Positions 9,832 through 54,296 are shown, numbered from the stretch's first letter. The stretch is 64,000 nt of DNA from an uncultured Phycisphaeraceae bacterium (GCA_964614075.1 CAZTJZ010000003.1:4408-68407); one strand, 5' to 3'. Notes: a model not told the origin generated them from the letters alone. Numbers and translations: made by a program.

Positions 9832-9869
9832 CGCGGACGGCCCCCGGATGGGGATCGGTTGCTCCGCGC

Positions 9870-10583
9870 TCACGTTGTGGGTGAGAGGGGCAGCAGGTCC
9901 GATTGCGTGAGCACGTCGGGGAGCTGGTCGAGGCGTTTGGCCCGGTCCACGGTGAACGTGCCGCTGCGGGTTCGTCGGAGCCCCCTGAGCATCCCCCCCA
10001 CATTCAGCGCGCGCCCGAGGTCGCGGGCGATGCTGCGGATGTAGGTTCCCTTCCCGCACTCGACGCGCAGCGTGAGCAGGGGCCAGTCGTAGGCGAGGAT
10101 CTCGAGCTTGTGCACCACGACGGGGCGAGGCGGGAGCTCGACGGGCGTGCCCTCGCGGGCGAGCTGGTAGGCGCGGCGTCCGCCCACGTGGAGGGCGGAG
10201 AACGCCGGGGGACGCTGCAGGATCTCGCCCGTGAACCTGGGCAGGAGGGCGTGGAGCGCGTCCGGGGCGGGGGGCGCCGCGTTGTCGACGCGCTGCACCT
10301 CGCCGTCCGCGTCATCGCTGGAGGAAATGTGCGCGAGGTCGACCAGAGCGTCGTAGGCTTTCTCTCCGGCCATGAACTCGTCGCAGCGGCGCGTGGCCTG
10401 GCCCACGAGCACGACAAGCAGCCCGGTGGCGGCGGGGTCGAGTGTGCCGGCGTGGCCGACCTTGAGGCGTTTGGGCGCTCCCGAGCGGCGGAAACGTGTG
10501 CGCACGATCGCGCAGACGTCCATCGACGTGTATCCCGTGGCCTTGTCGATGAGCAGCACGCCGCACGGCGTCGGGACGGTCAT
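9870..10583 (-). CDS. truB: tRNA pseudouridine(55) synthase
   Basis: 237 aa. GVLLIDKATGYTS, catalytic Asp motif GHAGTLDPAATGLL, FSALHVGGRRAY. Its ATG overlaps the upstream gene's stop (ATGA at 10580-10583). Confidence 0.9.
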   Translation of the reverse strand: MTVPTPCGVLLIDKATGYTSMDVCAIVRTRFRRSGAPKRLKVGHAGTLDPAATGLLVVLVGQATRRCDEFMAGEKAYDALVDLAHISSSDDADGEVQRVDNAAPPAPDALHALLPRFTGEILQRPPAFSALHVGGRRAYQLAREGTPVELPPRPVVVHKLEILAYDWPLLTLRVECGKGTYIRSIARDLGRALNVGGMLRGLRRTRSGTFTVDRAKRLDQLPDVLTQSDLLPLSPTT

Positions 10584-19200: not shown

Positions 19201-19749
19201 GGTGTACTCGTCCGAATCGGCGGCGCCCTCCGACCGTCCGCGCAGGGTGAGCGTGACGATCGGGACGTCGTCGATCTCGACGGGCTTCATGGTCCAGCCC
19301 ACCACGCCCGGCGGCACCAGGTCCTTGCTCTCCTCGAGTTTCTTGAAGAGGCGGACCAATGACCGCTCGCGGTCTTGACCGACGTAGAACCGCACCGTCA
19401 CGATCGCCGCATCGGTCCGGGACATCGAGTAGACGTACTCGACGCCGTCGATCTGGTACAGGGCACGCTCGAGGGGTGTCGTGACGAGCCGCTCGACCTC
19501 CTGCGAGGCCATGCCCGGGGCGTTCACATAGATGTCGGCCAGGGGAACGACGATCTGCGGGTCTTCTTCGCGTGGCGTCATCAGCAATGCCGCCGCCCCG
19601 ACCGCGACGGAGATCACCAGCAGGATCACCGAGAGGTTGGAATGCAGGAATGTCTTGACGATTCCGTTGATCCAGCCGGCGCGGGCGTGCTCGGCGAGTT
19701 CGAACGATGAGCCTCGCGGGGAATCGTGTGATGAAGGGGTTTCGCTCAC
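16240..19749 (-). CDS. RND efflux transporter permease (AcrB/CzcA superfamily)
   Basis: 1169 aa, with 12-TM RND architecture and two large periplasmic loops. Typical segments: TLFALILSLGLLVDDPIVDVENI and ALLVAQTGSF. Lies 3 nt after the adaptor gene. Confidence 0.95.
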   Translation of the reverse strand: MSETPSSHDSPRGSSFELAEHARAGWINGIVKTFLHSNLSVILLVISVAVGAAALLMTPREEDPQIVVPLADIYVNAPGMASQEVERLVTTPLERALYQIDGVEYVYSMSRTDAAIVTVRFYVGQDRERSLVRLFKKLEESKDLVPPGVVGWTMKPVEIDDVPIVTLTLRGRSEGAADSDEYTMRRVAEEAAARLATVEDTSRVTITGGLPRTLTAYVDREAIAGRGLSLLEIQRAIQASNASPPAGAIERGDSVIHIWSGTLVRDGNDLGNLVVGVSRGTPVFLRDIARIDDGPAERSTYLRHGWGPGRGFGAHPHSAGTLVGEGDHEEPASVSPSASVPAVTIAISKKKGSNAVHVAEAVIKESQRLKSEMVPDGLDLVVTRNSGRTADEKVSELVEGLWVAVLIVVALLTIGLGWREALVVAVAVPVVFGLTLAVNMLAGYTINRVTLFALILSLGLLVDDPIVDVENIARHFGLRRKATRAITLEAVSEIREPLISATLAVMASFLPLFFISGMMGPYMRPMALNVPVTMIMSMFVAFAITPWLAFHLLKKRPWAGGGANADGSSHAADEFARARASLQYRVLRPLLHPLLASRAKGWAFLAIVAMLTAGAAMLAAFRQVPLKMLPFDNKNEMLLLVNADEGTTLERTDALVRDLEAAVTRIPEVTDFTSYVGAPSPIDFNGLVRHYNLRTMPHQAEIRVNLVGKKSRKDPSHTIALREREVLEAIASKAGARLKIVELPPGPPVIDTLAAEIYGRDDLRYSDICDAAELVKARLAVEPGVVEPDHTVEAAHRELVFLPDQEKAALNGISVAELAATVRAAITGADVGVAHAPSERQPLSIIARLPRADRSSAADLSRIEVRGQSSPNSRLVSLAELGQWEERSTEQTIYHKNLQRVAYVFAETAGRPPADVIVDVMADHATDTTAQTGTVTRTPGGWLDTSSPRTLAGRSHLIRGGGIPWNTSDGTKVVWSGEGEWKITLDVFRDLGLAFAAALVMIYALLVAQTGSFMIPAVVMLAIPLTMVGIMPGFWLLGLLTGKTVGAYSDPVFFTATAMIGMIALSGIVTRQSIILVDFIHLSLKRGRPFIDAVIEAGAVRLRPILLVVAAAMLSAIPITIDPIFSGLAWALIFGLIASTVFTQFVIPLVYWMLYKNVPGHGIGTAQEG

Positions 19750-19752
19750 GGC

Positions 19753-20856
19753 TCAGCGCCCTTCCGTCACGCGGTCGATCACGACCTTCTCTCCGGGCAC
19801 AAGGCCGGAGAGCACCTCGACGCGCCCGTCCACGCTTCTGCCCAGTCGGACGGCTCGACGCTCGCGCACGCCGTTCACGGCTACGTCGACGCACTCGACC
19901 TGGCCGATCGTGCGCACGGCGTCGCGGGGGATCAGGAGGGTCTTTTCCTCGCCCACGGGGATCGACAGGCGACCGAACATCCCCGCGTACACGCCCTCGG
20001 GGCAGGGGCCGGTGACCTTGACCTGGAACGTGCGGCTCGCGGACTCGGCCTCGGGCACGATCTCGCTCACGGTTCCGGTGCAGGCATGGTCGAGCGCGTC
20101 GACCTTCACGGACACCCGACTGCCGACGGTGAGGACTCGTGAGAGCGACTCGCGCACGCTCGCCACCATCTGCATGCGACTGGGGTCCAGGACCGTCACG
20201 ACCACCTGCCCCGGCGACACCGTGTCGCCCGTGCTCACACGCTTGTCGACCACCGTGCCATCGATCGGGCTGCGAAGCGTCGCGTACTCCAGGACGGCCT
20301 GGGCCTCGGTGAGCGACTGCGTGGCTCGTGCCAGGCTGGCCTCGGCCCCTTTGAGCGCATGGACCGCGCGGTCCAGCTCAAGCCCGGCGATGGCGTTCTT
20401 CTCGAACGCGGATCTGAGCCTGGACTCTTCGGCCCGCGCCTGGTCCAGCATGGCCTGGGCGTGGGACACCGTCGATTCCGCCTGGGCACGCCGGGCGATC
20501 AGATCGGTGTCCTCGAGGCGGACCACGATGTCTCCCTTGTCGACATGCTGGCCGGCGATGACGTTGACCTCCAGAGCCCGCGCGAGCAGCCGCGAGGCGA
20601 TCTCCACACGATGCACGGGCTGGATCGCGCCTACCGCGGTCTCCTCCCGGGGCAAGGAGTACGCCAGGACTTCCACGACAGCCGCCGTCCCGAGTGGCCG
20701 GGCGGACGCCGCGGGCGTTGCGTGAGCCGAGATCTTGGGGCGGAACGCTCCGACCAGCCAGAGCATGAGTGCGACCACCGACGCCGTGAAGACCACGAGC
20801 ACTGACGCTGTGGTGATCCAGCGTGGCCGACGAGCAATTCTGGAGTGGATGCTCAC
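19753..20856 (-). CDS. RND efflux periplasmic adaptor (MFP/HlyD family)
   Basis: 367 aa. N-terminal TM anchor, coiled-coil hairpin region, and beta-barrel segments (VDKGDIVVRLED.., TLRSPIDGTVVDK). Confidence 0.9.
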   Translation of the reverse strand: MSIHSRIARRPRWITTASVLVVFTASVVALMLWLVGAFRPKISAHATPAASARPLGTAAVVEVLAYSLPREETAVGAIQPVHRVEIASRLLARALEVNVIAGQHVDKGDIVVRLEDTDLIARRAQAESTVSHAQAMLDQARAEESRLRSAFEKNAIAGLELDRAVHALKGAEASLARATQSLTEAQAVLEYATLRSPIDGTVVDKRVSTGDTVSPGQVVVTVLDPSRMQMVASVRESLSRVLTVGSRVSVKVDALDHACTGTVSEIVPEAESASRTFQVKVTGPCPEGVYAGMFGRLSIPVGEEKTLLIPRDAVRTIGQVECVDVAVNGVRERRAVRLGRSVDGRVEVLSGLVPGEKVVIDRVTEGR

Positions 20857-20918
20857 GAGAGGTTCTCCGCGGAGTGACGCCTCGACACTCTGACGGAGAC
20901 TTTGAGGCGCCTACCCCT

Positions 20919-21911
20919 TCACGGGTTCCTGGAGAGTCGGGCTCGCGATCGGTTCGGGCCTGGGGCACGGCTTGCGCGTGCTAATCCATGACCGTTGCGA
21001 ACCTCCGAGCCCCCGCCCGCGTCGCGATCCGCACTACGGATGGCCTTGAGGATCGCCTTCCGCACCCGCAGGGGCATCTTCCCTTCTGAGAGCCTCGCGC
21101 ACGTGCTCTGCGCGAGGTCCAGTTCCGCGAAGACCGATTGGCAGCGCTCGCACACGATGCCCTGCCCGATCGGGAAGCCCCTTCCCTTGTCCATCGCGTC
21201 GAGCTTGGCCTTGAGCAGGTCCAGGCAGACCTGTTTCTCGTAGGTCGGCGCTCTGGCGGATCGCTTGGGTACGGCTCGTCGCGCCATGATCGCCTTGCGC
21301 AAGAGCAGCCGGGCCCGGTGGACGCGCGTCTTGATCGTCTCGGGCTTGATGTTCAGTGCGGCGGCCACATCCTCGATGGAGAGCTCCAGCATCTCCTTGA
21401 GGACAAGGGGCACGCGGAAGCTCTCCGGCAGCGTCAGGATCGCCTCGTGCACGGCCCGGGCCGACTCACGGACAATCGCCGAGCCCACCGGCCCTTGCTG
21501 GTCCGCGTGAAGCGGATCACGTTCAAAATCGGCGAGGTCCACGTTCTTCGTCTCGTTCCATGGCATCAGCTGCGACACCGCGGGCATGCGACGGTCGATG
21601 CCTCCCTTCCGCCTCATCCGGGCCTTGCACGATCGGGCCGCGATCGCGTACAGCCACGTGCCGGGGCTGGCGTTTCCCTTGAATGTGTGCCACTTGCGGT
21701 AGGCCTGGAGGAACACGTCCTGCACCATGTCCTGAGCGTCGGCGGCGTTGCCGCACATCCGCGAAGCCAGCGCGTAGAGCCTTGGAGCGTGGAGCTCAAA
21801 GAGCGCCGGGACGGCCGTCCTGGCGGGGTCCATCGCACGCGGCTCCTCACACGGCGGCGTCGCGGCGGGAACCTGCTTGGCGGTTCTGGTGGCGGATGGG
21901 GAGTGACTCAC
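20919..21911 (-). CDS. ECF-type RNA polymerase sigma factor with ~110-aa C-terminal Cys-containing extension
   Basis: Region 2 (DAQDMVQDVFLQAYRKW) and region 4 HTH (LSIEDVAAALNIKPETIKTRVHRARLLL), then an extra tail with C-x25-CxxC-x15-C. The start could be ATG 21833 (MDPART..). Confidence 0.85.
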   Translation of the reverse strand: MSHSPSATRTAKQVPAATPPCEEPRAMDPARTAVPALFELHAPRLYALASRMCGNAADAQDMVQDVFLQAYRKWHTFKGNASPGTWLYAIAARSCKARMRRKGGIDRRMPAVSQLMPWNETKNVDLADFERDPLHADQQGPVGSAIVRESARAVHEAILTLPESFRVPLVLKEMLELSIEDVAAALNIKPETIKTRVHRARLLLRKAIMARRAVPKRSARAPTYEKQVCLDLLKAKLDAMDKGRGFPIGQGIVCERCQSVFAELDLAQSTCARLSEGKMPLRVRKAILKAIRSADRDAGGGSEVRNGHGLARASRAPGPNRSRARLSRNP

Positions 21912-22138: not shown

Positions 22139-23380
22139 TTACTCTGTTCGGGCTCGAGGCGTGGTCATGCCCTGCGCCGAAGCCCAGTGGGCGAGATCCG
22201 TGCCGTTGATGGCCGCGGCCATGAGCTCGGGGAACATGTCGGGAGTGCACGCGAAGCTGGGGACGCCGAAGCCCGCGAGCGCGGCGGCGTTCTTCTCGTC
22301 GAAGCTCGGCGCCCCGGAATCTCCGAGGGCCAGCAGCGTCACCATCCGCGCCCCCGAGCCGGCGATCGAGGCGGCCCGCCTGAGCATCTCCGCGTTGTTC
22401 CCGCCCTCGTACAGGTCGGTGACGAGCACAAGGATCGTGTCGCGCGGACGCGTGATCAACCCCTGGCAGTAGGCGAGGGCACGGTTGATATCGGTGCCGC
22501 CCCCCAGCTGCACGCCCATGAGCACGTCGACCGGGTCGCCCATCTTCTCGGTGAGGTCGACGACGCTGGTGTCGAACGTCACGACGTGCGAGCGGATCGC
22601 GGGGATCGACGCGAGCACCGCGCCGAAGACGCCGGAGTAGACCACCGACTGCCCCATGGACCCGGACTGGTCGATGCAGACGATGATCGTCCGGAGCTGG
22701 CTGCGTTTGCGGCCGTACCCGATCCGCGACTCGGGGACGATCGTCTTGTATTCGGGCTGGTAGTGCTTGAGATTGGCCCGGATCGTTCGGTTCCAGTCGA
22801 TCTCGTTGTGCCTCGGGCGACGCGTCCTGGTGGATCGCTTGAGCGCGCCGGTCACCGCGGTGCGCATCGGGGCGTCGAGGCGGCGTTTGAGATCCTCCAC
22901 CACTCGCCGCACGACCTCCCGCGCCGTTGCCTTGGCTTTCTGGGGGATAACCCCCGACAGCGCCATGAGCGTTGTGACCAGGTGGATGTCCGGTTGCACG
23001 GCCTCGAGCATCTCGGGCTCGAGCAGCAATCGCTGCATTCCCAGGCGTTCGATCGCGTCCTTCTGCATGACCCGCACGACCGAACTCGGGAAGTACTCGC
23101 GGATGTCTCCGAGCCAGCGTGCGGCGTTCGGGGCCGAGGCGCCCAGGCCGCCGCGGCGTTCGGACCCGCCGGCGTTCCCGTCGTAGAGCAGGGACATGGC
23201 CTTGTCCATGGCCAGCAGCCTCGCGTCCAGGCTGACCCCGGTGCCGTCGGCCTCGTCCCCGCCGAGCAGAAGTCGCCAGCGCTTGAGGCGGGTTTCCGCA
23301 TCCACCGAAGGGTGGGTCGGCGCCGCGAGACGGGGCGAGCCTTGGGCATTGGGCGCGATGGACGGCCTGGCCTGATTCAT
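22139..23380 (-). CDS. VWA domain protein (5th gene of SWIM-MoxR-VWA operon; YehP-like by recollection)
   Basis: 413 aa. Complete MIDAS set: DQSGSM, GGGTD, LVTDLYEGG. Its ATG overlaps the upstream stop (ATGA 23377-23380). Confidence 0.85.
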   Translation of the reverse strand: MNQARPSIAPNAQGSPRLAAPTHPSVDAETRLKRWRLLLGGDEADGTGVSLDARLLAMDKAMSLLYDGNAGGSERRGGLGASAPNAARWLGDIREYFPSSVVRVMQKDAIERLGMQRLLLEPEMLEAVQPDIHLVTTLMALSGVIPQKAKATAREVVRRVVEDLKRRLDAPMRTAVTGALKRSTRTRRPRHNEIDWNRTIRANLKHYQPEYKTIVPESRIGYGRKRSQLRTIIVCIDQSGSMGQSVVYSGVFGAVLASIPAIRSHVVTFDTSVVDLTEKMGDPVDVLMGVQLGGGTDINRALAYCQGLITRPRDTILVLVTDLYEGGNNAEMLRRAASIAGSGARMVTLLALGDSGAPSFDEKNAAALAGFGVPSFACTPDMFPELMAAAINGTDLAHWASAQGMTTPRARTE

Positions 23381-25647
23381 CGCGTGAGCTCCCCGAGGAT
23401 CATTTTCAGCACCGGGTCCACAAGTTGGCCTCGCGCGGGGTCGTACTCGTCGTCGGCCTCGCTCGCCGGTTGGTGTGCAACGCCCAGGCCGCGCTTGAGA
23501 CTCTCCCCGATCATCCGGCGTTCGGGCTTCGCGAAGGTCGAGAACGTGCGGCGTGCGATCGGGCAGACTTGCTCGAAGGTCGTCGGCGAGAGAGACCCGA
23601 CCCATCCGTCGATGATCGCGAGGAGTCGCTGGTCGTGCACGAGCACCGCGCCGGAGCCGCTCAGGAACCCCTCCACCCAGGCGGAGGCCTGGCCCGGCTC
23701 ATGGCCGGGAGAGAGGGCGAGCGCGATGCGCGTCTCGGCAGATTCCGTGCTGCACGCCCGGGCGTCGAGCAGGATTCGCCACGCCCGCCCGGCCACGAGC
23801 CCGTGGACGTCTGCGTCGGCGAGCTTGCTCAGCTCGGCGTGCCAACGCTCGCTGAACTCCGGTTTTGCCAGCGTGCCCAGGGCGGCGGAGACCGCGTCGA
23901 GCCGGCCGCGCATCTCGCCGGCGGCATCGTCGTCGAGGGAACCGCACGCCGGGAGGAGTCCGGCGCAGATTCGGGCGAGCAGCCCGTCCACCAACGGCTC
24001 GACCAGGGCCGCGTCGGTCTTGCGAACGTTGCCGTACCGGAGGATCAGCGCCAGGGGTGAAAGGGCGTCCATCAGCCCGCCGATGCTCGCGGCAACGGCC
24101 GAGAGGGACTGAATCCGCGAGATGAGCGTGTCGACCGCGCCGGGCAGGTCGGCCAGCATGACGTGATCGAGCAGGTGGGTCAGCTCTGAGAGCTCGCGGG
24201 CGTTGTTGGCCCGGTCCTGAACGCACGCCGCCGCGGCGTCGTGGATCGTGTTGCCCCAGCGGGCGGCCTCGATGACGGCGACGGCAAGCTCCGGCTTCCA
24301 CTGCAGCTTCCACACCTCGTGGAACGTGTTGGAACGCTGCCTTTGGTCGGCCGCCCGTTTGCCCCATGCAATCCCGAGTACGGAGAGCCGATGCAGCAGC
24401 CGGCTGCGGAGGGCGTCGGTCTCCTTCCGCAGATCGAGGTCGAGATCGGCGTCGTCGGCCGAGACCTTCATGCGGAGCGATTTCTGCTGGGCTGCGAGGT
24501 CACGCTGCAGCGGGATGTTGGGGGCGTGCTCGGGAATCTCACCCAGCCGGCGTCCCACAATCAGTTTCTGCTCGATGACGCGCATCGGCAGGGGGTTTCC
24601 GGAGCACAGGATCGAGAGCGTCGCTTCGGAGAGCTCGTCCAATCCCGCGATCGATCGGCCGCGGAGCGCCGCGAGCGCTTCGGCGAGGCGCACCGACTCG
24701 ATGACACTCGCCGGGGAAGCGTCGAGGCTCTCCTCACGCAGGAATCGGGCCACTTTGGCGAGCCATCTCGTGGAGATCTGGTCGTGGTTCAGCCAGAGGT
24801 GCTCGTACCACCCCGGGCTTGTGACCCCCGCGCCGTACCCCGATTGGTGCGAGAGCCGGTCGTAGGTCCAGGGGATCCACGTCGCGTCGGTCTTGCGTTT
24901 GGGGAGCCCCTTGAGGAGCTCGTCGTCGGCCTTGGGCGCGATCGACGTGAGCGACTGGGCGGTCAGCACCGGCGCGTGCCACGCCCCGCAGATGACCGCG
25001 ATGCGCTCGTGGCCTTCCCGCATCGCCGCGCGGATCGACCGGCGCATGTGCGCCTCGCGAGCGGGCTCCTCCGCATCGTGGCGTGATGACCCGAGCTCGG
25101 CGCGGGCGCAGCCCATCGCCTCGGTGATCGCCCCGAAGACGTCCAGCGGGTGATCGTCGCCGCGCCGCTCCTCGATGAGTCGGCCCCACCAGGCCTCGCC
25201 ATCCGCGAAGCCCGCCGCGTGCGCCAGGGCCTCGAGCGGATCAGCCCTTGGCCCCGCGGGCTGCGGTGAGTTTGCCGGCGTCGCCCGGTGTTGCTCTTCG
25301 CCCGCGGCATCCCCCTTGGTCGCTCGCTTCGCGCGGAGCGACTGGGGCAGGTCGATGAACCGCAGCAATGACTTGTGCTTGAGCGCCCAGCGGATCGCCT
25401 GCCACTCCGGAGAGAACTCGGCGAAGGGGTAGTACGAAGCGTCCGAGGGGACCTCGGGGTCATAGACGAGGATCGCGACGGGAGGGACCATGTGGGCGTC
25501 CGCCGCGAGCGGCAGAACTCCCTCGGCGTCCGGAGGTCCCTCGATCAGCACCGCGTCGGGCTTGATCATCTGGAGTGCGCGGCTGACCATGCGCGCCGAG
25601 CCCGGGCCGTGATGGCGGATCCCCAGGATGTAGAGCTCTGCGGGCAT
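23377..25647 (-). CDS. large uncharacterised protein (DUF5682 / YehM-like by recollection)
   Basis: 756 aa. N-terminus LYILGIRHHGPGSARMV...PDAVLIEGPPDAEG matches what I remember of DUF5682. No catalytic motif recognised. Confidence 0.7.
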   Translation of the reverse strand: MPAELYILGIRHHGPGSARMVSRALQMIKPDAVLIEGPPDAEGVLPLAADAHMVPPVAILVYDPEVPSDASYYPFAEFSPEWQAIRWALKHKSLLRFIDLPQSLRAKRATKGDAAGEEQHRATPANSPQPAGPRADPLEALAHAAGFADGEAWWGRLIEERRGDDHPLDVFGAITEAMGCARAELGSSRHDAEEPAREAHMRRSIRAAMREGHERIAVICGAWHAPVLTAQSLTSIAPKADDELLKGLPKRKTDATWIPWTYDRLSHQSGYGAGVTSPGWYEHLWLNHDQISTRWLAKVARFLREESLDASPASVIESVRLAEALAALRGRSIAGLDELSEATLSILCSGNPLPMRVIEQKLIVGRRLGEIPEHAPNIPLQRDLAAQQKSLRMKVSADDADLDLDLRKETDALRSRLLHRLSVLGIAWGKRAADQRQRSNTFHEVWKLQWKPELAVAVIEAARWGNTIHDAAAACVQDRANNARELSELTHLLDHVMLADLPGAVDTLISRIQSLSAVAASIGGLMDALSPLALILRYGNVRKTDAALVEPLVDGLLARICAGLLPACGSLDDDAAGEMRGRLDAVSAALGTLAKPEFSERWHAELSKLADADVHGLVAGRAWRILLDARACSTESAETRIALALSPGHEPGQASAWVEGFLSGSGAVLVHDQRLLAIIDGWVGSLSPTTFEQVCPIARRTFSTFAKPERRMIGESLKRGLGVAHQPASEADDEYDPARGQLVDPVLKMILGELTR

Positions 25648-25668
25648 GGGTGGGCGTTGCGTCGGGCG

Positions 25669-26781
25669 CTAGAGGATCTCCTTGCACGCCCGGTAGAGGT
25701 CCTTCCAGCCCTCCCGCTCCTTCACGACGGTCTCGAGGTACTCCTGCATCACGATCTTGTCCTGCACCGGGTCCTTGACGATCGCTCCGAGGATCCCGCT
25801 GGCGACGTCCGCCGCCTTGACCTTGCCGTCCCCGAAGTGGGACGCGAGCGCCATCCCGCTGGTCACGACGCTGATCGCCTCGGCGGTGCTCATCGATCCC
25901 GAGGGGCTCTTGAGCTTGCTCTTGCCGTCGATGGACTTGCCGTCGCGTAGCTCGCGGAAGATCGTGACCACGCGGCGGATCTCTTCAAGAGCCGGAACCT
26001 CGCCGGGCAGGTCGAGGGCCTTGCCCATCTGCCCCACGCGCTGGTGCACGATCTTGACCTCGTCGTCCATGGAGTCGGGCACGGGGAGCACGACGGTGTT
26101 GAACCGCCGCTTGAGCGCGCTCGAGAGCTCGTTGACGCCGCGGTCTCGATCGTTGGCGCTGGCGATGATGTTGAAGCCCTTGACCGCGCGCATCTCCTCG
26201 TTGAGCTCCGGGATCGGCATCGTCTTCTCGGAGAGGATGGTGATCAGCGTGTCCTGGACCTCGCTGGGCACGCGCGTCAGCTCCTCGACGCGGACGATCT
26301 TCCCGTCGGCCATGCCCCGCATCACCGGGCTCTGCACCAGGGCGTCGCGCGAGGGCCCCTTGGCCAGGAGCAGCGCGTAGTTCCATCCGTACCGGATGGC
26401 CTCTTCCGGGGTGCCCGCCGTTCCCTGCACCAGGAGCGTCGAGTCGCCGCTGATGGCCGCGGCAAGATGCTCGCTGACCCAGCTCTTCGCGGTGCCCGGC
26501 ACGCCCAGCAGCAGCAGCGCCCGGTCGGTCGCGAGCGTGGCGACCGCGATCTCGATGATCCGCTTGTCGCCCACGTACTTGGCGGAGATCTCGGTGCCAT
26601 CCTTGAGCTTCCCGCCCATCAAGTACGTGACGACCGCCCAGGGCGAGAGGTTCCATCGCGGCGGGCGCTCGCGGTCGTCCGTCCTGGCCAGGGCGGCCAG
26701 TTCCGAGGCGTGCTGCTTCTCGGCGGCTTCGCGCATGACGGACGGCACGGCGGCGCTCGCCTCTCGGCTGGTCTTGCTCAC
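25669..26781 (-). CDS. MoxR-class AAA+ ATPase (AAA_5; YehL-like by recollection)
   Basis: 370 aa. Walker A GVPGTAKS, Walker B-like IVRVEELTR, and MoxR-type segment NIIASANDRDRGVNELSSALKRRF. GTG start overlaps the upstream stop (GTGA 26778-26781). Confidence 0.9.
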   Translation of the reverse strand: MSKTSREASAAVPSVMREAAEKQHASELAALARTDDRERPPRWNLSPWAVVTYLMGGKLKDGTEISAKYVGDKRIIEIAVATLATDRALLLLGVPGTAKSWVSEHLAAAISGDSTLLVQGTAGTPEEAIRYGWNYALLLAKGPSRDALVQSPVMRGMADGKIVRVEELTRVPSEVQDTLITILSEKTMPIPELNEEMRAVKGFNIIASANDRDRGVNELSSALKRRFNTVVLPVPDSMDDEVKIVHQRVGQMGKALDLPGEVPALEEIRRVVTIFRELRDGKSIDGKSKLKSPSGSMSTAEAISVVTSGMALASHFGDGKVKAADVASGILGAIVKDPVQDKIVMQEYLETVVKEREGWKDLYRACKEIL

Positions 26782-28289
26782 GATTGAAACTCCCTGTGCA
26801 TCTCCGCACGAACCCGGACACGGTCAAGGCTCTTCCGGATGCTCTCGCTGGGGCCGTCCGGGTACATCTCCGCGACGAGCGCTTCGAACAGATCCGCCGC
26901 CCCGGGGTGGAGCAGCCTCGATATCGACTCGATCGGCGACCAGAACTCCCAGGTGTCGGCCTTCTTGGGTATCGCGGCGCGGAGGATCTTCGCTGCACGC
27001 CTGGAGAAGTCGAGCGACCACGGACGCGGGTCCGACGCCAGCAGCCTCCACGCGGCTGCCCCCGGCACCGGCCCCGCACCATCGAGGAATCGGAGGCGCA
27101 GCGCTTCGCCCTTCTCGGGAGCCTGCGCCCTCCAGATCATGACCAAGCCGGCTTCGTACTCGAGCTTGTGATCGGCGCACGCCGAGACGATGGCCTCGCT
27201 CCATTCGGCGCTATCCGGCTGCTGGGGACAACCGGCGATGCTCGCAAACATCGCTCCGAACGCATCGTCAAAGTACTCGTCGCCGCGGATGGCGGTGAGC
27301 AGCTCCGAGGGCGTCAGCCCGGTGAGCCCTGTCCACGCCGCGAGGTCCGTCGAGGAAAGCACCTGCACCATCCAGAATGCCCGCTTGCCCTTGCCGGCCG
27401 CGGCCTGCTCCTCGATTCCGTCTCGCTCCCACGCCTTGTCGAAGGCCTTCGGCGGCTCGATCCTGACCGTCGTCTTGGCGCGGCGGATCGGTCCCGCTTT
27501 CGTCCTCTCCACGCCGATCATGCCCGCGGCCCGCTCTCGCATGCGAGCACGCAGCGAGGACCCCGCCAGCCGGGTCAGAGCGCGCACGCTCTCTCGACGC
27601 ACCGTCTTGCTGCGATCGTCGAGCGTGGATTCGAGAAAGGGCTCGTCCGCGGGCGCCACGCTGTGTCCCAGGACCTCGACGAACTTCCGCCGCTCTTCGG
27701 CTCCGTCCACGTCCCACGTGGCCCGCACCATCTCCAACGCCCGGGCGGCATCGGTTTTCCGAACCGTGACCAGCAGCGCGGCGCGTTCCGCGGGGGATCC
27801 GGTCTGCCAGATCTCGTCCGCATCCTCCGGGATCTCCGACACCGCGATCGGCTTTCGCCAGTCAGGGTTGAGCCCCGCGAGCCAGGCCCCGCACGCGCCC
27901 GTGGCGCCGAAGACTTCGGGCGAACGGCTCGGCTGCCTCGCCCACCAATCCAGGAGCACCGGAACGACGACCGCGGGCGCCCGCACCTCGCGTGCCTGCG
28001 CGAGCGTGCACCACTCCTGGATCAGCCCCGGCTCGGGAATGGCCAGCAAACGTTCGAGCAGCGCGGCCTGCGACGCCGTCGCGTCCGAACGAGCGTCCGC
28101 GGGGCAGGTCTCGACCGCCTCCGCGGCCGCGCGGCAGCGCCGCCCCGCTCGCGCCCGCATCCCCGCCACCGCCGCCCGCGTGAGCAGCGTCGCGGGTGTG
28201 TCGCCTGTTCGCGCCGCGCGGTCACTGCCCAGCATCGCCGTGACGGCGAGTTCCTTGAGATCCCGTAGTGGCGTGGCTCGGGTGCTCAT
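26778..28289 (-). CDS. uncharacterised protein (DUF5691-like by recollection)
   Basis: 503 aa, mostly helical-looking, no motif recognised. ATG 28289 overlaps the SWIM gene's stop (ATGA 28286-28289). Confidence 0.65.
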   Translation of the reverse strand: MSTRATPLRDLKELAVTAMLGSDRAARTGDTPATLLTRAAVAGMRARAGRRCRAAAEAVETCPADARSDATASQAALLERLLAIPEPGLIQEWCTLAQAREVRAPAVVVPVLLDWWARQPSRSPEVFGATGACGAWLAGLNPDWRKPIAVSEIPEDADEIWQTGSPAERAALLVTVRKTDAARALEMVRATWDVDGAEERRKFVEVLGHSVAPADEPFLESTLDDRSKTVRRESVRALTRLAGSSLRARMRERAAGMIGVERTKAGPIRRAKTTVRIEPPKAFDKAWERDGIEEQAAAGKGKRAFWMVQVLSSTDLAAWTGLTGLTPSELLTAIRGDEYFDDAFGAMFASIAGCPQQPDSAEWSEAIVSACADHKLEYEAGLVMIWRAQAPEKGEALRLRFLDGAGPVPGAAAWRLLASDPRPWSLDFSRRAAKILRAAIPKKADTWEFWSPIESISRLLHPGAADLFEALVAEMYPDGPSESIRKSLDRVRVRAEMHREFQS

Positions 28290-29644
28290 GCCGCCCACCT
28301 CGCCCCGAGGGCGACGTACTTCGTCCCCCCACTTTCGACGAAGAGCCCGACCGGTTCCGCCACTTCACCGTCCCATTCCACGACGACGGTCGCCTCGCGT
28401 CCGCCCGTGGCCGAGAGCAGCCGCCACAGATGAATCCCCCGCTCGAACGCGGGTGCGAGTGGCAGCACCTCTTCTCTCTGTTCGAGCAGCCAGCGATCTC
28501 CCGAGCGCATCACCCTCGTGCGGGGCAGCACCATGGGCCACCGCGCCAGCCAAGGGTTCGCGCTCAACGCCTTGGCATACCGGTCGAGGTTCGCGCCGAT
28601 GGCGTTGGGGCCTGCTTCCCCGGGCGCGGTCGCGGCCGACGAGCTCTCGCCACAAGACTTCACCAGCGCTCGAAGCGGCGCTCCCGACGGGTAGTACACC
28701 ACTTCACCCTCGAAGGTCGTTCCCGCCACCAGCGACGTGTCCAAGGGCTGGTTCCCAACCGAGAAGTCCACGACCAACGCGGCTCCCGCGGTGCGCTTGC
28801 CCCACAGCCATGTCCGCCGCACAGTGAGACGATTGTCTTCTTCGAAGGCCTGGCCGACCACGGTCCACAGGTCGGGAATGCCCTGCCCCGCGAGAACTTC
28901 TTCCTTGGACTGGTTGTATCCGATCGCGACGCGGACATCGCCCGCGAGCTCGCTCGGCAGGTCGGCGAGACGATCCGCGGCCGTCAGCAGCAGATGGAGT
29001 CGCCCCAGCTGATCAAGAGCCCGCACTTCCCACCCGAAGCCCGACGCCATCGACAGGGGGATACGCCTGATGATCGCCGCCAAGCCCGGGGCTTGCGCGT
29101 CGACCATCCGCGCCGCGACCCGTTCGCACTCGGCGGTCGCGTTGGCCTGGGCCGCCGCGAGCCCGCGACGCACGAGATCGTCCAGCCAAGTCCGGCACTC
29201 CGCCACGCCCTGGCGGACCCGCTCCTCACGAGCGGCCGCACGCTTGGCCTGAGCCGCCGGATCCACGGGCGACTCCGCCGCGGACTTGGCTTTCTCCGCC
29301 TTTTTCTCGGCCCTCTCGGCCCGGCCGTCGATCCACTCGCTCACCCACCCGGGCTCGTCGCCCTTCTTGAAACTCGCCTTGGCCTTCGCGAACAGCAGGA
29401 GCAGCCCGAGGCCATGCTTGCAGGGGAACTTCCGGCTCGGACAGCTGCACTTGAAGACCGGCTCGCCGAGGTCGATGCGAGATTGATACGGATCCTTGCC
29501 CGACCCCTGGCAGAGCCCCCAGATCGCCCGATCGCTCGCGCCCAGCGACGTCCACTTTCGTTCGGAGGCAAGGCCCTGCCCGGCGGAGGCCGAGCCCGCG
29601 TCGGGCGCGAGTGCAAGCACTTTGTCCGTGCTCCAGTCCTTCAC
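28286..29644 (-). CDS. SWIM zinc-finger protein (first gene of operon)
   Basis: SWIM signature CSCPSRKFPCKH (CxCxnCxH). Start set at GTG 29644 (MKDWSTDKVLALAPDA..), the N-terminus usual for this family. The track extension to 29845 is not protein-like. Confidence 0.8.
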   Translation of the reverse strand: MKDWSTDKVLALAPDAGSASAGQGLASERKWTSLGASDRAIWGLCQGSGKDPYQSRIDLGEPVFKCSCPSRKFPCKHGLGLLLLFAKAKASFKKGDEPGWVSEWIDGRAERAEKKAEKAKSAAESPVDPAAQAKRAAAREERVRQGVAECRTWLDDLVRRGLAAAQANATAECERVAARMVDAQAPGLAAIIRRIPLSMASGFGWEVRALDQLGRLHLLLTAADRLADLPSELAGDVRVAIGYNQSKEEVLAGQGIPDLWTVVGQAFEEDNRLTVRRTWLWGKRTAGAALVVDFSVGNQPLDTSLVAGTTFEGEVVYYPSGAPLRALVKSCGESSSAATAPGEAGPNAIGANLDRYAKALSANPWLARWPMVLPRTRVMRSGDRWLLEQREEVLPLAPAFERGIHLWRLLSATGGREATVVVEWDGEVAEPVGLFVESGGTKYVALGARWAA

Positions 29645-29818
29645 AACGCAGACTCTATCCGTTCGAGCCTCACCTTGCGTGCGAAAGAGTGTGCGAGTCT
29701 GTCGGCAGCCGGCACGATCCACTTCGGCGAGCTCGTCGCTCGGCTGATGAACGCCAACCTCGAGCGGTACCACGTGGACTACAGCCGCATGAAGAACACG
29801 TGCTACACGCCCGACGGC

Positions 29819-29950
29819 GGATCGTGCGTCGAGCCCATGGAGCACGATGCCGCGTCAATCGGCGAAGAGTCTTCTGCCGCCCAGGTTGAAGCCGCGGTTC
29901 TGGGAGCCCGACATATGCCGTTTGCAGAGCGCCAAGGCGGCTTTGGAGGA
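29819..29950. repeat. degenerate copy (c0) of the hairpin + tRNA-Pro-3'-end + arm module
   Basis: Hairpin GGATCGTGC..GCACGATGC (29819-29850), then core remnant TCGGCG. The arm TCTGGGAGCCCGACATATGCCGTTTGCAGAGCGCCAAGGCGGCTTTGGAGG is about 75% identical to 31424-31480. Confidence 0.6.
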
Positions 29951-30049
29951 TTGAGGGATACCAGCAAAGCCGACAGGTACTGAAGGCGCGCGTCACGCGA
30001 CGATCCGATTATCAACAATGCGATTCTGAAACCTGCTCGTGAGTACCGG

Positions 30050-31027
30050 CTACCTCTCCCAACCACTTATCGTCTGCCGCCGCTCAAGAAGCTTCCGTCC
30101 AGCTCCGCCGGAATCAGGCGTAAACCAAAGCTGAACCAATACGTCGTGCTTCGAATCCCAGCCTGTGGCGATCTCTTCGACGACCACCTTCGAGTTGGCG
30201 TAGAAGAGTTGTTCTGATTCGTCTGAGTATCCAACGCGCTCACGCGCGTAGAGGTGCGCGTGCGATATCGTAAGGTCTTTCGACTCGTCGCCGGACTTGA
30301 CCCGCAACTCTGTCACGCCTGGCATCCCCGGATTGATCCACGCTTCGATATCCAACTCCTGCTTCGCTGAGTCATCAATGGTGATGGAGGGCGCCCCTTT
30401 GTGCGTGTCAGTAGGCGAGATGGCTGACAGCGGCTTGCCATCCTGAACGGCCTTGCGAACAGCAGCCAACTCAGTCTCTACCTCAACCAAGAGCCCAGGC
30501 GTCTTTGGTAGGTTCCCGACGTCGTCGATTTCGACGGTCGAGAGCCAAAGGTTGGGAACGCCCACGAAGAGATACGCAAGGCGCCGGGACGGGATCGGCC
30601 GATAGGTGCAGATCGCCACTTGAGTGGCGCCGGCATCCGGCGCGACCTGCGTTACGCAGGGCGACATGAACTCCGGTTCCGTTGGCTTCTCCTCGAAAAC
30701 AAGTCCCACTCGTGTCTGCGTCTTGGATCCGATGAAACCGTTCAGTGTGACGCGAGAATCTAACCGCCGATACGCGACGGCGACGTCGCGGCCACCGCGT
30801 CGTTCCATCCCTACGCGCCAGCGCGGAGAAGCCTCGACGTACCGTTTGAGGTCGTCTTTCTTACCATCGCAGAAGTACTTGAATGACGGAAGACTGACGT
30901 CGATCTTCTGCGAGCCGCTGCTGCTGTATGGAGTGGCTGTCGCTTTGGGTGGAGGGGCGTTCTGCGGAGCCTGTCCCGCGGGCTGAATGAGTGCGAACAG
31001 CAGCACTGAATAGCAGAGTGTCAGCAT
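30050..31027 (-). CDS. hypothetical secreted protein (lower-GC islet gene)
   Basis: 325 aa. Signal-like MLTLCYSVLLFALIQPAGQA. GC about 55-58% in sampled lines, with many A/T-ending codons. No family recognised. Confidence 0.6.
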   Translation of the reverse strand: MLTLCYSVLLFALIQPAGQAPQNAPPPKATATPYSSSGSQKIDVSLPSFKYFCDGKKDDLKRYVEASPRWRVGMERRGGRDVAVAYRRLDSRVTLNGFIGSKTQTRVGLVFEEKPTEPEFMSPCVTQVAPDAGATQVAICTYRPIPSRRLAYLFVGVPNLWLSTVEIDDVGNLPKTPGLLVEVETELAAVRKAVQDGKPLSAISPTDTHKGAPSITIDDSAKQELDIEAWINPGMPGVTELRVKSGDESKDLTISHAHLYARERVGYSDESEQLFYANSKVVVEEIATGWDSKHDVLVQLWFTPDSGGAGRKLLERRQTISGWER

Positions 31028-31064
31028 CGAGCTAATTGTATGCGTAGCGCACCCACATCTCGCA

Positions 31065-31262
31065 TCAGGTGTGGATGACGCGTCCCTCGCTCGCCAGCGC
31101 CGCCTCCCACGTCGCCTTATGCATCGTCGGCAGCGCGTGACTTGAGCAGATGATCTCTTCCATGGTCAGTTCCAGACGCCGCGCCAGCGGCAGCCCGCAG
31201 ATCAGCTCGGTCGACTGAGCGCCTCGTGCGGGCACGATCGGCTCGGTAAATCGATTTGACAA
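31065..31262 (-). CDS. small hypothetical ORF (weak DUF433-like C-terminal pattern)
   Basis: 65 aa. ..LTMEEIICSSHALPTMHKATWEAALA loosely resembles the DUF433 tail (s.eEIl..YP.Lt.e.i.aAL.Y). Possibly a decayed gene. Confidence 0.25.
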   Translation of the reverse strand: MSNRFTEPIVPARGAQSTELICGLPLARRLELTMEEIICSSHALPTMHKATWEAALASEGRVIHT

Positions 31263-31335
31263 AGGCGCGAGCGGATCAAATCAGTGACGAACCGCTTGGG
31301 ATGGCAGGACGCAATCGCACTCCGCCGTAAACACC

Positions 31336-31500
31336 GATGGCCCCGGTACCTACCGAGGCCATCTGGTCTTCCAAGTCGGGGTGACAGGACGCCAATAGAA
31401 CTCTTCTTGGAGGGCGTTAGGGTCTGGGAGCCACGGATATGCCGTTTTCTGAGCGGAAACGCGGTATTGGGGGAATGAGCGATCAGCCGCAAAGTCGACA
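31336..31500. repeat. copy c1 of the hairpin + tRNA-Pro-3'-end + arm module (left boundary of ars islet)
   Basis: Hairpin GATGGCCCCGG-TACCTA-CCGAGGCCATC (31336-31363). AAGTCGGGGTGACAGGA (31373-31389) is identical 17/17 to 33537-33553. The arm is CGCCAATAGAACTCTTCTTGGAGGGCGTTAGGGTCTGGGAGCC... Confidence 0.8.
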
Positions 31501-31659
31501 TGCAAACGCGTAGATCAACGCCATGACGACAAGCCCGAACGTCAACGCGATACCGACGTGCTCAACCGTCCCGCCCGTCGTCTGATTGACGATGATTGCG
31601 CCCGTACCCGCGAACACGAGGCAGAACGTCCCCAATGACTCCGCGAGAAGTCGATTCAC
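31483..31659 (-). pseudogene. truncated MIP/aquaglyceroporin (N-terminal ~53 aa only)
   Basis: VNRLLAESLGTFCLVFAGTGAIIVNQ..VGIALTFGLVVMALIYAFA is a MIP helix1-helix2. The ORF breaks just before the expected HISG..NPA motif, at the islet arm. GTG overlaps the arsC-arsM stop (GTGA 31656-31659). Confidence 0.65.
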
Positions 31660-32981
31660 CACTTCACCGCCGACACATCAAGGCTCGTGATGTAGTCGCT
31701 CGGCTTGGAGCCGGCGGGGAGGGCTTCCACGATCCGGCGATAGAGCGGGTCTTCCCAGTTCGTCATGGCGTCGATGTATTGCGGCTTGGGCGTGAGCGTG
31801 ACTTCGGACAATCCTGCCGCGTCCGCCATTGTCCGCGTCTCTTCGACGAGCACGGCCCCGGCAATGCATCCCACGAGCGCTTCCACGTCGGCTTTGACCG
31901 ACTCGGGAAGCGGGCGCACGAGCGCCAAGTCCGAAACGGCCACGCGCCCGCCCGGCTTCAACACGCGGGCAATCTCACGCCAGACTCGCGGCTTGTCGGG
32001 CGAGAGGTTCAACACACAGTTGGATATCACCACGTCCACGCTCGCGTCGGCGACGGGGAGCGATTCAATCTCACCCAACCGAAACTCCACGTTGTCCAAG
32101 CCGGTTTGCTTGTGGTACGAAGCCACGTTGCGGCGGGCCTTTGTGAGCATGTCGGGCGTCATGTCCACGCCGATCACGCGGCCCGTCTTCCCCACCTTTG
32201 GCCCGGCCACGAAGCAATCGAAACCCCCGCCCGCGCCCAAGTCGAGCACCACTTCACCGGGACGGAGCGAAGCAATCGCGGTTGGGTTGCCGCACGAGAG
32301 GCCCATGTTCGCACCGTCCGGCACCGCCGACAGTTCGCCACTCGCGTACCCGATTGCTTGGGCGAGTTGATCGGGCGAGAACGCGGTAGCGCCACAGCAC
32401 CCGCCGCCGCTCGGGCCACAGCATCCACTCTGCGCAATCTGCGCGTACCCCGCGCGGACTTGATCCCGCACGGCGTTCGCATCCGGCGCTGCGGGTGGGC
32501 AGCACGAATCATCACAGCATGTACGCTCGGGCATGGCGGAACCTCCGGTAAGGGCTTGGGGCAACGTCTCCACGAATCGCCGAATCTCATCACGCACCCG
32601 GCGGTAGTGCGGCATGGCGTCTTCGTCGGTCTTCGCACCCTTCGCCAACGTGGGCGGATCATCGAAGCCGACGTGGATCACCTTCGCGGGGCCGGGGAAG
32701 TACGGGCACGCTTCGTTCGCGGAATCGCATACCGTCACCACGAAGTCAAAGGCAACGCCCGAGAGAGCATCCACGGTCTTCGACGTGTGGCCGGATATGT
32801 CCACGCCCGCTTCGGCCATCGCTCGAACAGCGAGCCGGTTCATCCCGTGCGGATCGGTCCCGGCGGAGTAGGGCTCGATGGAATCAGAACGGAGCGCCCG
32901 CGCCCAACCCTCCGCCATCTGACTCCGGCACGAGTTGCCGGTACAGAGGAACAACACGCGGCGCTTAGCAGCACTTGCCAT
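31656..32981 (-). CDS. arsM: fusion protein: LMW-PTP-type arsenate reductase (ArsC) + arsenite S-adenosylmethionine methyltransferase (ArsM)
   Basis: 441 aa from ATG 32981. The N-terminal ~140 aa carry LFLCTGNSCRSQMAEG (CX5R P-loop) and DPPT. This is followed, with no stop, by Cys pairs and the ArsM core VLDLGAGGGFD, GVDMTPDML, VISNCVLNL, LVGCIAGA. Confidence 0.9.
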   Translation of the reverse strand: MASAAKRRVLFLCTGNSCRSQMAEGWARALRSDSIEPYSAGTDPHGMNRLAVRAMAEAGVDISGHTSKTVDALSGVAFDFVVTVCDSANEACPYFPGPAKVIHVGFDDPPTLAKGAKTDEDAMPHYRRVRDEIRRFVETLPQALTGGSAMPERTCCDDSCCPPAAPDANAVRDQVRAGYAQIAQSGCCGPSGGGCCGATAFSPDQLAQAIGYASGELSAVPDGANMGLSCGNPTAIASLRPGEVVLDLGAGGGFDCFVAGPKVGKTGRVIGVDMTPDMLTKARRNVASYHKQTGLDNVEFRLGEIESLPVADASVDVVISNCVLNLSPDKPRVWREIARVLKPGGRVAVSDLALVRPLPESVKADVEALVGCIAGAVLVEETRTMADAAGLSEVTLTPKPQYIDAMTNWEDPLYRRIVEALPAGSKPSDYITSLDVSAVKW

Positions 32982-33351
32982 TGCACGCCCCTCCCTTCGC
33001 GGGACAGCACTCATCCAACGCATCCGCGAGGGACCGAATGGAGCGGACGAGTTCGGCGTAGCGGACGCGATAGAACACCGTCCGCCCTTCCTTCGTGGCT
33101 TCCAGCACGCCGGAGCGGGCGAGCAACGCGAGATGCCGGGACACCACGGAGAAGTCCACGGAACAGCACTCGGCAACCTCTCCGACAGAGCACCCACGCC
33201 CGCACTTGGCGATGCACCCGATGAGGGAGACGCGGGTAGGGTCGGACAACGCCTTGAACAGCACGGGGTCTAGCAGCGCGTCGAGAGGCCCACAGCACGC
33301 GGCGGCTTGCTTTGGTGTGGCCGGCGGCCTTCGTTTGCGTATTTGCGTCAT
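32965..33351 (-). CDS. arsR: ArsR/SmtB family metalloregulator
   Basis: 128 aa from ATG 33351. Winged-HTH FKALSDPTRVSLIGCI...VGEVAECCSVDFSVVSRHLALLARSGVL. Extra Cys pairs (AACCGP, DECCPAKGGACNGKCC). 17-nt overlap with the arsC-arsM start. Confidence 0.85.
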   Translation of the reverse strand: MTQIRKRRPPATPKQAAACCGPLDALLDPVLFKALSDPTRVSLIGCIAKCGRGCSVGEVAECCSVDFSVVSRHLALLARSGVLEATKEGRTVFYRVRYAELVRSIRSLADALDECCPAKGGACNGKCC

Positions 33352-33493
33352 GGTGCAAGTATTGGCGACGATGCGTGCGTTGTCAAAGTTCAAACGCGGT
33401 TCAATAATCCTGTCAACCCCGCCCGAAAGCCGCCCATTCGGCAGCGTTACTTGAACAGTCACTTGGATAACGCAAGTGCTGTGTTTTCAACGA

Positions 33494-33526
33494 GAAAGCC
33501 CTTCGACGTGCTCATCGAAGGGCTTC
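33494..33526 (-). terminator. islet-borne terminator hairpin following tRNA-Pro(CGG)
   Basis: On the minus strand, GAAGCCCTTCGA-TGAGCACG-TCGAAGGGCTTTC immediately downstream of the tRNA 3' end, followed by TCTCGTTG. Confidence 0.55.
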
Positions 33527-33538
33527 ACTCTGAACAAA

Positions 33539-33613
<75 letters not shown>

Positions 33614-54222: not shown

Positions 54223-54296
54223 TCGGGGTGGCGGGATTTGAACCCACGACCTTTTGACCCCCAGTCAAACGCGCTACCAAGCTGCGCTACACCCCG
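54223..54296 (-). tRNA. tRNA-Pro (anticodon GGG)
   Basis: Minus strand CGGGGTG-TA-GCGC-AGCTTGGTA-GCGC-G-TTTGA-CTGGGGG-TCAAA-AGGTC-GTGGG-TTCAAAT-CCCGC-CACCCCG-A. Confidence 0.95.

Follow-up and report, generated by a model that had tools for sequence, protein, structure and literature searches.

A stretch of 64,000 nucleotides from an uncultured Phycisphaeraceae bacterium (GCA_964614075.1 CAZTJZ010000003.1:4408-68407), referred to in the following as the window, carries on its minus strand at 22139-29644 five consecutive genes encoding a SWIM zinc-finger protein, a DUF5691 protein, a MoxR-type AAA+ ATPase, a DUF5682 protein and a VWA protein with a metal-ion-dependent adhesion site (MIDAS). 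MoxR, the MIDAS-bearing VWA protein and DUF5682 form the invariant core of this cassette, which is joined by the SWIM and DUF5691 proteins. We tentatively read the locus as a self-contained, soluble, ATP-driven machine of the YehL/YehM/YehP type with five subunits, in which DUF5682 would be hydrolase and scaffold, the MoxR-VWA pair would act as the gate and the SWIM-DUF5691 pair would recognize the target.

Operon layout

The five long open reading frames (ORFs) of the operon span 22139-29845 on the minus strand. All of them were found at the coordinates that the initial annotation of this DNA had given for five co-directional genes, and Pfam searches back every one of its domain calls, including DUF5691 and DUF5682.

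28286-29644, minus strand: SWIM zinc-finger protein, 452 amino acids, GTG start at 29644; Pfam SWIM, 21.4 bits (cut-off 19.6)
26778-28289, minus strand: DUF5691 protein, 503 amino acids; Pfam DUF5691 over the full length, E=1e-93
25669-26781, minus strand: MoxR-type AAA+ ATPase of the YehL subfamily, 370 amino acids; Pfam AAA_5, E=2e-37
25648-25668, minus strand: MoxR/DUF5682 spacer of 21 nt, the sole non-overlapping junction, read from the sequence
23377-25647, minus strand: DUF5682 (YehM-type) protein, the largest and most diagnostic subunit, 756 amino acids; Pfam DUF5682 over the full length, E=3e-258
22139-23380, minus strand: VWA protein of CoxE/YehP type, 413 amino acids; Pfam VWA_CoxE, E=5e-50

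Reading of the sequence also confirmed the junctions described earlier: an ATGA in which the DUF5691 start overlaps the SWIM stop, a GTGA between DUF5691 and MoxR, a TAG followed by 21 nt and an ATG between MoxR and DUF5682, and a second ATGA in which the VWA start overlaps the DUF5682 stop. Judged by this arrangement, all five genes are predicted to be translationally coupled. The G+C content at third codon positions lies between 0.79 and 0.95 in the five ORFs, which fits genuine genes in a genome of 69% G+C. No promoter-like or terminator-like signals beyond chance level were found inside the operon, and no membrane segments were found in the five proteins, whose hydrophobic-segment scores are all at most 1.8.

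The GTG at 29644 is the likely start of the SWIM gene, as about 100 homologues of 450-452 amino acids share an equivalent start and begin with MxxWTxD. It is worth mentioning that the frame is open for another 67 codons 5′ of this GTG, up to 29845. A product of 495 amino acids is annotated in one or more public assemblies, and different gene callers are likely to place this start differently.

Conservation of the five-gene unit

A scan for DUF5682 in one genome per species gave 258 relatives, the best 80 loci of which were analyzed. The window protein has its best relatives in metagenome-assembled genomes of Planctomycetota/Phycisphaerales with 81% identity, and metagenome assemblies hold near-identical proteins. 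The best 80 of the 258 loci stem from Bacteroidota as well as from Planctomycetota, Verrucomicrobiota, Actinomycetota, Chloroflexota, Gemmatimonadota, Acidobacteriota, Armatimonadota and Pseudomonadota. In these last eight phyla the gene order SWIM-DUF5691-MoxR-DUF5682-VWA is kept, and tblastn with the five window proteins recovered it in about 65 of the 80 loci; among loci whose flanks are long enough, hardly any lacks it. The five-gene order is the same in Deinococcus and Rhizobium replicons as annotated independently in RefSeq. Identity across phyla amounts to ~70% for MoxR, ~60% for VWA, ~45% for DUF5682, ~40% for SWIM and ~30% for DUF5691, while the median gap at the four junctions is near zero. 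As order and short gaps recur from phylum to phylum, the five genes are a conserved unit, in line with the initial annotation. The DUF5682 family itself comprises 4328 clusters at 50% identity in an exhaustive search at E≤1e-3, and 3122 at E≤1e-10.

The E. coli counterpart

The correspondence to E. coli yehLMPQ that the initial annotation had suggested holds for the three-protein core, which is similar along its full length with 43% identity for YehL (over 358 of the 370 MoxR residues, E=3e-82), 36% for YehP and 28% for YehM; a SWIM zinc-finger partner is likewise encoded within the same operon. It does not extend to the remainder, since E. coli is devoid of DUF5691, the gene order is MoxR-DUF5682-VWA-SWIM, and YehQ, which has two SWIM fingers, is dissimilar by BLAST. 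Both YehQ and the window protein match Pfam SWIM, with a BLASTP similarity that is not significant and with different operon positions. YehQ as an equivalent of a SWIM-DUF5691 fusion was ruled out, as BLASTP finds similarity to neither protein. The K-12 region consists of yehF (WGR), yehH (pseudogene), yehI (DUF4132), yehK, yehL (AAA_5), yehM (DUF5682), yehP (VWA_CoxE) and yehQ (SWIM); the upstream WGR and DUF4132 genes are absent at the window operon. In our locus L081 the E. coli genes lie as follows.

L081 5280-8912: E. coli yehI (DUF4132)
L081 9597-15945: E. coli yehLMPQ

A single chromosomal copy of yehLMPQ is present in 5353 of 5426 complete E. coli genomes (98.7%). Its nucleotide identity to K-12 ranges from 90 to 99%, with 934 genomes at 90-95%, a spread that at first sight seemed wide for a core operon.

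YehL is a named MoxR subfamily that is listed as uncharacterized (PMC3893208, PMC11432383). The architecture had been annotated as one without an assigned function, and our literature searches agree with this: they gave no paper treating DUF5682, DUF5691 or yehLMPQ as a system and no functional study for MoxR+vWA+SWIM, DUF4132 or yehL+yehP, and yehM and yehQ appear in incidental mutation or strain lists.

The SWIM and DUF5691 subunits

The CxCxnCxH motif of the SWIM protein, CSCPSRKFPCKH, is found at 29414-29449, and its residues C66, C68, C75 and H77 do not vary among 59 homologues. This motif and the Walker and MIDAS motifs treated below were each located exactly as quoted in the initial annotation. 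An AlphaFold2 (AF2) model of the protein, with a predicted local distance difference test score (pLDDT) of 89.6, shows an N-terminal SWIM domain, a long helical region and two C-terminal beta-barrels.

28310-28879, minus strand: two C-terminal beta-barrels of the SWIM protein, from the AF2 model

The SWIM part of the model gave a Foldseek match to ZSWIM8 (prob 0.9), and the barrels gave repeated but weak, non-significant matches (E>0.02) to OB/HIN/RPA/LEF-3-like folds that bind single-stranded DNA. For DUF5691 we obtained a weak HEAT-ARM match in PADLOC. A relation of DUF5691 to the DUF4132 protein YehI was ruled out by an hhalign probability of 0.3%.

In 15 Micromonosporaceae genomes, SWIM and DUF5691 are encoded as a single uninterrupted ORF of ~920-980 codons. 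As fusion in one ORF is classical evidence of joint action, the two proteins likely act together, and the idea of a stoichiometric complex raised in the initial annotation is strengthened by these gene fusions.

A permissive slot between MoxR and DUF5682

The MoxR/DUF5682 junction carries an insert of >400 nt in 13 of 74 loci, compared to 0-2 loci for each other junction. These inserts are lineage-specific and represent six or more families without relation to one another. They encode a DUF4253 protein, a 23S-IVS-type protein that is small and has four helices (PDB 2GSC, 1e-8), a protein combining HD and nucleotidyltransferase domains, a nuclease resembling NucS that matches PDC-S02, a PADLOC candidate, a ~1000-residue DUF4132/HEAT protein and, as the sixth, an AbiEii-type nucleotidyltransferase that overlaps a solo DUF5682 in Saprospiraceae. 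We read most of them as hitch-hikers in a single permissive gap.

The DUF4132/HEAT inserts were found in two Verrucomicrobiota loci (L042 7008-9995 and L062 6882-9995); together with E. coli yehI they make DUF4132 recurrently linked to the cassette. In three Chthoniobacterales loci (L020, L022 and L027, at ~8890-9990) the slot holds an HD + cytidylyltransferase-like protein of 330-370 amino acids that is 70% identical among them, and in L020 a nicotinate phosphoribosyltransferase gene lies 3′ of the VWA gene. A hypothetical gene of 78 amino acids occupies the slot on a Deinococcus taeanensis plasmid (L091 8765-9001). The solo DUF5682 proteins of Saprospiraceae (L064 9303-12307; also L049 and L059) are 40% identical to that of the window and have no SWIM gene within 10 kb; the AbiEii-type gene precedes DUF5682, its stop overlapping the DUF5682 start.

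The MoxR and VWA subunits

In the MoxR ATPase, Walker A is joined by a Walker B with an EE pair and by a motif resembling an Arg finger, and the MIDAS of the VWA protein is complete (DxSxS, T and D motifs), as read from the translation and aligned with YehP.

26482-26505, minus strand: MoxR Walker A GVPGTAKS, by exact motif search
26281-26295, minus strand: MoxR Walker B-like VRVEE, by exact motif search
26101-26118, minus strand: MoxR motif ALKRRF
22229-22867, minus strand: VWA domain within the 413-residue VWA protein
22658-22672, minus strand: MIDAS DQSGS, by exact motif search
22490-22504, minus strand: MIDAS GGGTD, by exact motif search
22415-22423, minus strand: MIDAS VTD, by exact motif search

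Across loci the VWA proteins are uniform in length with 380-415 amino acids, and no close sequence of solved structure was found for the window protein. For the MoxR subunit, the closest solved sequences are those of Midasin (E=5e-9) and NorQ (E=3e-4). As both of these work through a MIDAS partner, they count in favor of a MIDAS-partner mechanism.

DUF5682 and the proposed mechanism

The AF2 model of DUF5682 (pLDDT 82, predicted template modelling score 0.77) consists of an N-terminal alpha/beta domain with a disordered insert at residues 110-132, a mixed middle region and a C-terminal alpha-solenoid; after an acidic, disordered stretch the protein closes with a terminal helix that is conserved.

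24862-25647, minus strand: DUF5682 N-terminal alpha/beta domain, residues 1-262, proposed TIKI/TraB/GumN-like hydrolase domain
25597-25623, minus strand: GIRHH motif, invariant
25534-25548, minus strand: LIEGP motif, invariant
25402-25413, minus strand: SPEW motif, invariant
25345-25356, minus strand: IDLP motif, invariant
25045-25059, minus strand: REAHM motif, invariant
24970-24990, minus strand: CGAWHAP motif, invariant
23380-24300, minus strand: C-terminal alpha-solenoid, residues ~450-756, from AF2 secondary structure and pLDDT
23437-23454, minus strand: disordered acidic stretch DDEYDP, then the conserved terminal helix

From planctomycetes to E. coli, the residues G9, R11, H12, H13, P15, E36, S79-P80-E81 and D99 are invariant, as are W154, E159, R197-E198-A199, M201 and C220-G221-x-W223-H224. 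The order and spacing of these residues prompted a test against the TraB/GumN family, for which 15 DUF5682 N-termini and 12 TraB/GumN proteins were aligned blindly with MAFFT. Six motifs came out in register. With respect to E. coli YbaP, G9/H12 fall on G38/H41, E36 on E67, P80/W82 on P116/W118, D99 on D141, R197 on R228 and G221/H224 on G249/H252. The best of 403 fold matches of the model in the viral library BFVD was a TraB family protein [Marseillevirus LCMAC201] with E=5e-3 and prob 1.00, and the order of secondary-structure elements is compatible with a TIKI fold. By its published definition, the TIKI superfamily combines an alpha/beta fold with catalytic His/Glu residues, a basic residue that is conserved, and appended domains of various kinds (PMC6254334); H12, E36 and H224 of DUF5682 fit the His/Glu set and R197 fits the basic residue. 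Motifs and model together suggest that the N-terminal domain is a distant TIKI/TraB relative, probably with an intact active site.

On this basis, DUF5682 could serve as both scaffold and catalytic subunit, with the N-terminal domain as a divergent TIKI/TraB/GumN-type hydrolase in which two His, one Glu and one Arg of the superfamily's active site would be retained, and with the C-terminal alpha-solenoid binding the partners. In NorQ-NorD, CbbQ-CbbO and Midasin, the AAA ring works through a MIDAS. A MoxR hexamer may likewise act through the MIDAS of the VWA protein, and the pair would either switch the DUF5682 hydrolase on in a conformational or metal-loading step or pull bound substrate into DUF5682. 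The SWIM-DUF5691 pair would form the substrate-recognition module, its target being a protein or a protein-nucleic-acid complex. The client of MoxR-VWA would then be encoded inside the operon. As no outside client is conserved, the simplest reading takes DUF5682, or else a substrate that it holds, for the client.

We regard it as a doubtful extension of this proposal that the cassette represents an unrecognized class of AAA+-coupled hydrolases, in which a cryptic TIKI/TraB protease or esterase is gated via MoxR and the VWA MIDAS and aimed by SWIM-DUF5691 at one particular target in the cytoplasm, either a protein or a protein-nucleic-acid complex. If true, bacteria would possess in the cassette an equivalent of AAA+-assisted site-specific proteolysis that is assembled from other components.

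Several results speak against a TIKI/TraB-type hydrolase driven by this ATPase. A Pfam search at E≤10 found only DUF5682 and no TraB, ChaN or erythromycin-esterase match, and phmmer and profile searches of the PDB with DUF5682 gave nothing relevant. Comparison by hhalign with YbaP and with the YbaP family alignment stayed at a probability of at most 5% and was not significant; the best DUF5682/TraB hhalign result is local with E=0.007 at 5% probability, and the global one is meaningless. The BFVD match has a borderline TM-score of 0.42 on the target and a high root-mean-square deviation of 12.5. In Foldseek searches of the PDB with the full-length model, the top 50 matches were helical-repeat scaffolds, none at E<1e-3 and none with a TIKI fold, a set dominated by the helical C-terminal part. 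Furthermore, the Walker B acidic pair of MoxR is EE instead of DE, an exchange that is kept in YehL, and DUF5682 of Saprospiraceae is apparently able to exist apart, with neither MoxR nor VWA within 10 kb. Because profile significance was not reached, we do not file the DUF5682 domain as a TIKI/TraB member. No TraB-like ORFs were found in the cassette loci or in the window.

Genomic context and alternative functions

When 5,479 flanking ORFs were clustered all against all, no conserved client or sixth gene common to phyla emerged, and local synteny was seen within Micromonosporaceae only. The 98 immediate neighbors from 50 diverse loci cover 152 Pfam families, the commonest of them seen 4 times; their PADLOC matches are sporadic with nothing recurrent, and the tightly linked co-directional neighbors (n=20) are mutually unrelated. 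The flanks are mostly unrelated metabolic and housekeeping genes, so that in these 50 loci neither a conserved neighboring client enzyme nor co-occurrence with defense islands was found.

These data bear on the alternative that survives best, a classical MoxR-VWA maturation chaperone that would act on a client enzyme encoded elsewhere, either by remodelling it or by supplying it with a metal or cofactor, with DUF5682, SWIM and DUF5691 as adaptors only. Its AAA_5 and VWA_CoxE families are the same as in NorQ-NorD, CbbQ-CbbO and CoxD-CoxE, NorQ is among the solved sequences closest to the MoxR subunit, and E. coli keeps its version as a stable operon of the core genome, as a housekeeping role predicts; reviews treat MoxR proteins as maturation factors (PMC3893208, PMC11432383). 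The known couples, however, adjoin the genes of their clients, whereas no neighbor is conserved across the 50 loci here. A chaperone would also leave three large conserved extra subunits unexplained, and the invariant His/Glu/Arg set of DUF5682 suggests catalysis over pure scaffolding, so that we consider this explanation unlikely.

Less probable still is an NTP-dependent conflict system directed against phages or other invaders, with MoxR-VWA as a threshold switch, DUF5682 as a TIKI/TraB-like protease effector and SWIM-DUF5691 as sensor, by analogy to the ternary vWA-MoxR-VMAP systems. A patchy distribution across distant phyla that yet goes along with high conservation (~70% for MoxR) would be compatible with horizontal spread. 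The lineage-specific inserts with their NucS-like nuclease, the AbiEii-type gene overlapping the DUF5682 start in Saprospiraceae and a weak bpMoxR match point in the same direction. However, the cassette occurs on only 39 of 72,556 plasmid records, mostly megaplasmids, and on 1 of 50,697 phage records, it is part of the core genome in E. coli, and its flanks are metabolic or housekeeping instead of defense islands; this distribution is not the profile of a mobile defense system. Apart from one weak HEAT match, PADLOC models pick up none of the five proteins, a Pfam scan of them found no VMAP or iSTAND component, the architecture is uniform and the VWA protein is without a variable effector domain. 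Some of the inserts are known selfish hitch-hikers, one of them the protein of 23S-IVS type, and they sit in the sole junction with a spacer. The paper describing the vWA-MoxR-VMAP systems does not mention the cassette (PMC7159879). The conflict-system reading that the initial annotation had offered receives no support from context or domain content. Megaplasmids carry the cassette in Deinococcus taeanensis and Hymenobacter radiodurans.

A nucleic acid-linked damage response, in which SWIM and the barrels would bind, the AAA+ ATPase would extract and the TIKI-like domain would cleave proteins stuck on DNA or RNA (such as stalled or crosslinked complexes), could draw on the weak repeated matches of the barrels to folds binding single-stranded DNA, on the WGR and DUF4132 genes next to yehLMPQ (yehF, yehH/molR, yehI), on the DUF4132 protein inside the operon in two Verrucomicrobiota loci and on RtcA and RlaP RNA-repair genes flanking two loci. 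WGR and DUF4132 genes are moreover strongly induced in the radiation/desiccation response of Deinococcus, and molR is described as a member of the LexA regulon (PMC8533742). We nevertheless judge it improbable, as each supporting item is weak or anecdotal (fold matches at E>0.02, neighbors recurring in few loci), the E. coli yeh region has 10 LexA-box-like sites versus 8.7 expected from shuffled sequence, with none upstream of yehL, the sequences preceding the SWIM gene in five close relatives of the window share no conserved motif, and DUF5691 and DUF4132 are not detectably related. With LexA-box-like sites at chance level, SOS regulation of the yeh operon was ruled out.

Immediately upstream of the operon, the GC content of the window drops from 0.68 to 0.60. 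The initial annotation had the operon ending at a tRNA-Pro islet; it does adjoin a low-GC stretch, while the tRNA-Pro itself is 3.9 kb away. Upstream and downstream of the operon the following features were found.

33539-33613, minus strand: tRNA-Pro(CGG)
31656-33197: low-molecular-weight phosphatase/ArsC-like + S-adenosylmethionine methyltransferase fusion, in the low-GC stretch upstream of the operon
30050-31027: ORF of 325 amino acids with no Pfam match, in the low-GC stretch upstream of the operon
20919-21911, minus strand: ECF sigma factor with a long C-terminal extension, 330 amino acids
19753-20856, minus strand: HlyD-type membrane-fusion protein
16240-19749, minus strand: AcrB-type RND pump

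From the operon to tRNA-Pro(CGG), at 29846-33613, the GC content is 0.60-0.65 versus ~0.69, and a tRNA-Pro(GGG) at 54223-54296 adjoins another low-GC block (52-54 kb, GC 0.59); both stretches look like tRNA-associated islets. The ECF sigma, HlyD and AcrB genes (16240-21911) are co-directional and lie downstream of the operon after a gap of 227 nt; they are not kept beside the cassette in other genomes.

Significance and comparison with known systems

With >4,000 DUF5682 clusters in at least 8 phyla, the cassette ranks among the larger conserved bacterial gene blocks without a function, and its place in the E. coli K-12 core genome makes it directly testable by standard genetics. Its autonomy, the unity of SWIM and DUF5691 and the putative DUF5682 site narrow the experiments to the equivalents of His12, Glu36 and His224 in YehM and to YehP and YehM pull-downs. 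The architecture is already catalogued, though uncharacterized, in the form of Pfam DUFs, the YehL subfamily and routine RefSeq names, and the window copy is a typical member. New here are the autonomy of the module, its core-genome status in E. coli, the SWIM-DUF5691 fusion and the permissive MoxR/DUF5682 slot, joined, probably, by a TIKI/TraB-like active site in DUF5682 as suggested by motifs and model.

The cassette shares with NorQ-NorD, CbbQ-CbbO and CoxD-CoxE an AAA_5-type ATPase and a VWA protein of the CoxE Pfam family with a complete MIDAS. Those systems, in contrast, consist of two components encoded beside the client enzyme, whereas the cassette adds three conserved large subunits and has no conserved neighboring client. 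In eukaryotes, Midasin (Rea1) uses an AAA_5 ring and a MIDAS to remove assembly factors from pre-ribosomes. As proposed for the cassette, an AAA ring is coupled to a MIDAS, which grips an acidic residue of the target, but Midasin is a single polypeptide of 4,900 residues with six fused AAA modules and has no equivalent of SWIM, DUF5682 or DUF5691, so that the similarity is limited to the AAA module.

Members of the TIKI/TraB/PrgY/GumN superfamily include the Wnt protease TIKI1, the Ras protease RRSP, erythromycin esterases and E. coli YbaP. The N-terminal part of DUF5682 has their motif order GxxH, E, PxW, D, R, GxxH and differs from them by its disordered insert of ~35 residues and a 500-residue helical extension; we know of no TIKI-family member that works with a MoxR-VWA pair. 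The vWA-MoxR-VMAP/iSTAND systems (Kaur et al. 2020, PMC7159879) differ from the cassette by their VMAP/iSTAND protein, the variable effector domain of their vWA protein, their defense-island context and the lack of SWIM, which is present in the cassette; in both, MoxR, a CoxE-type vWA protein and further large components are united in one operon.

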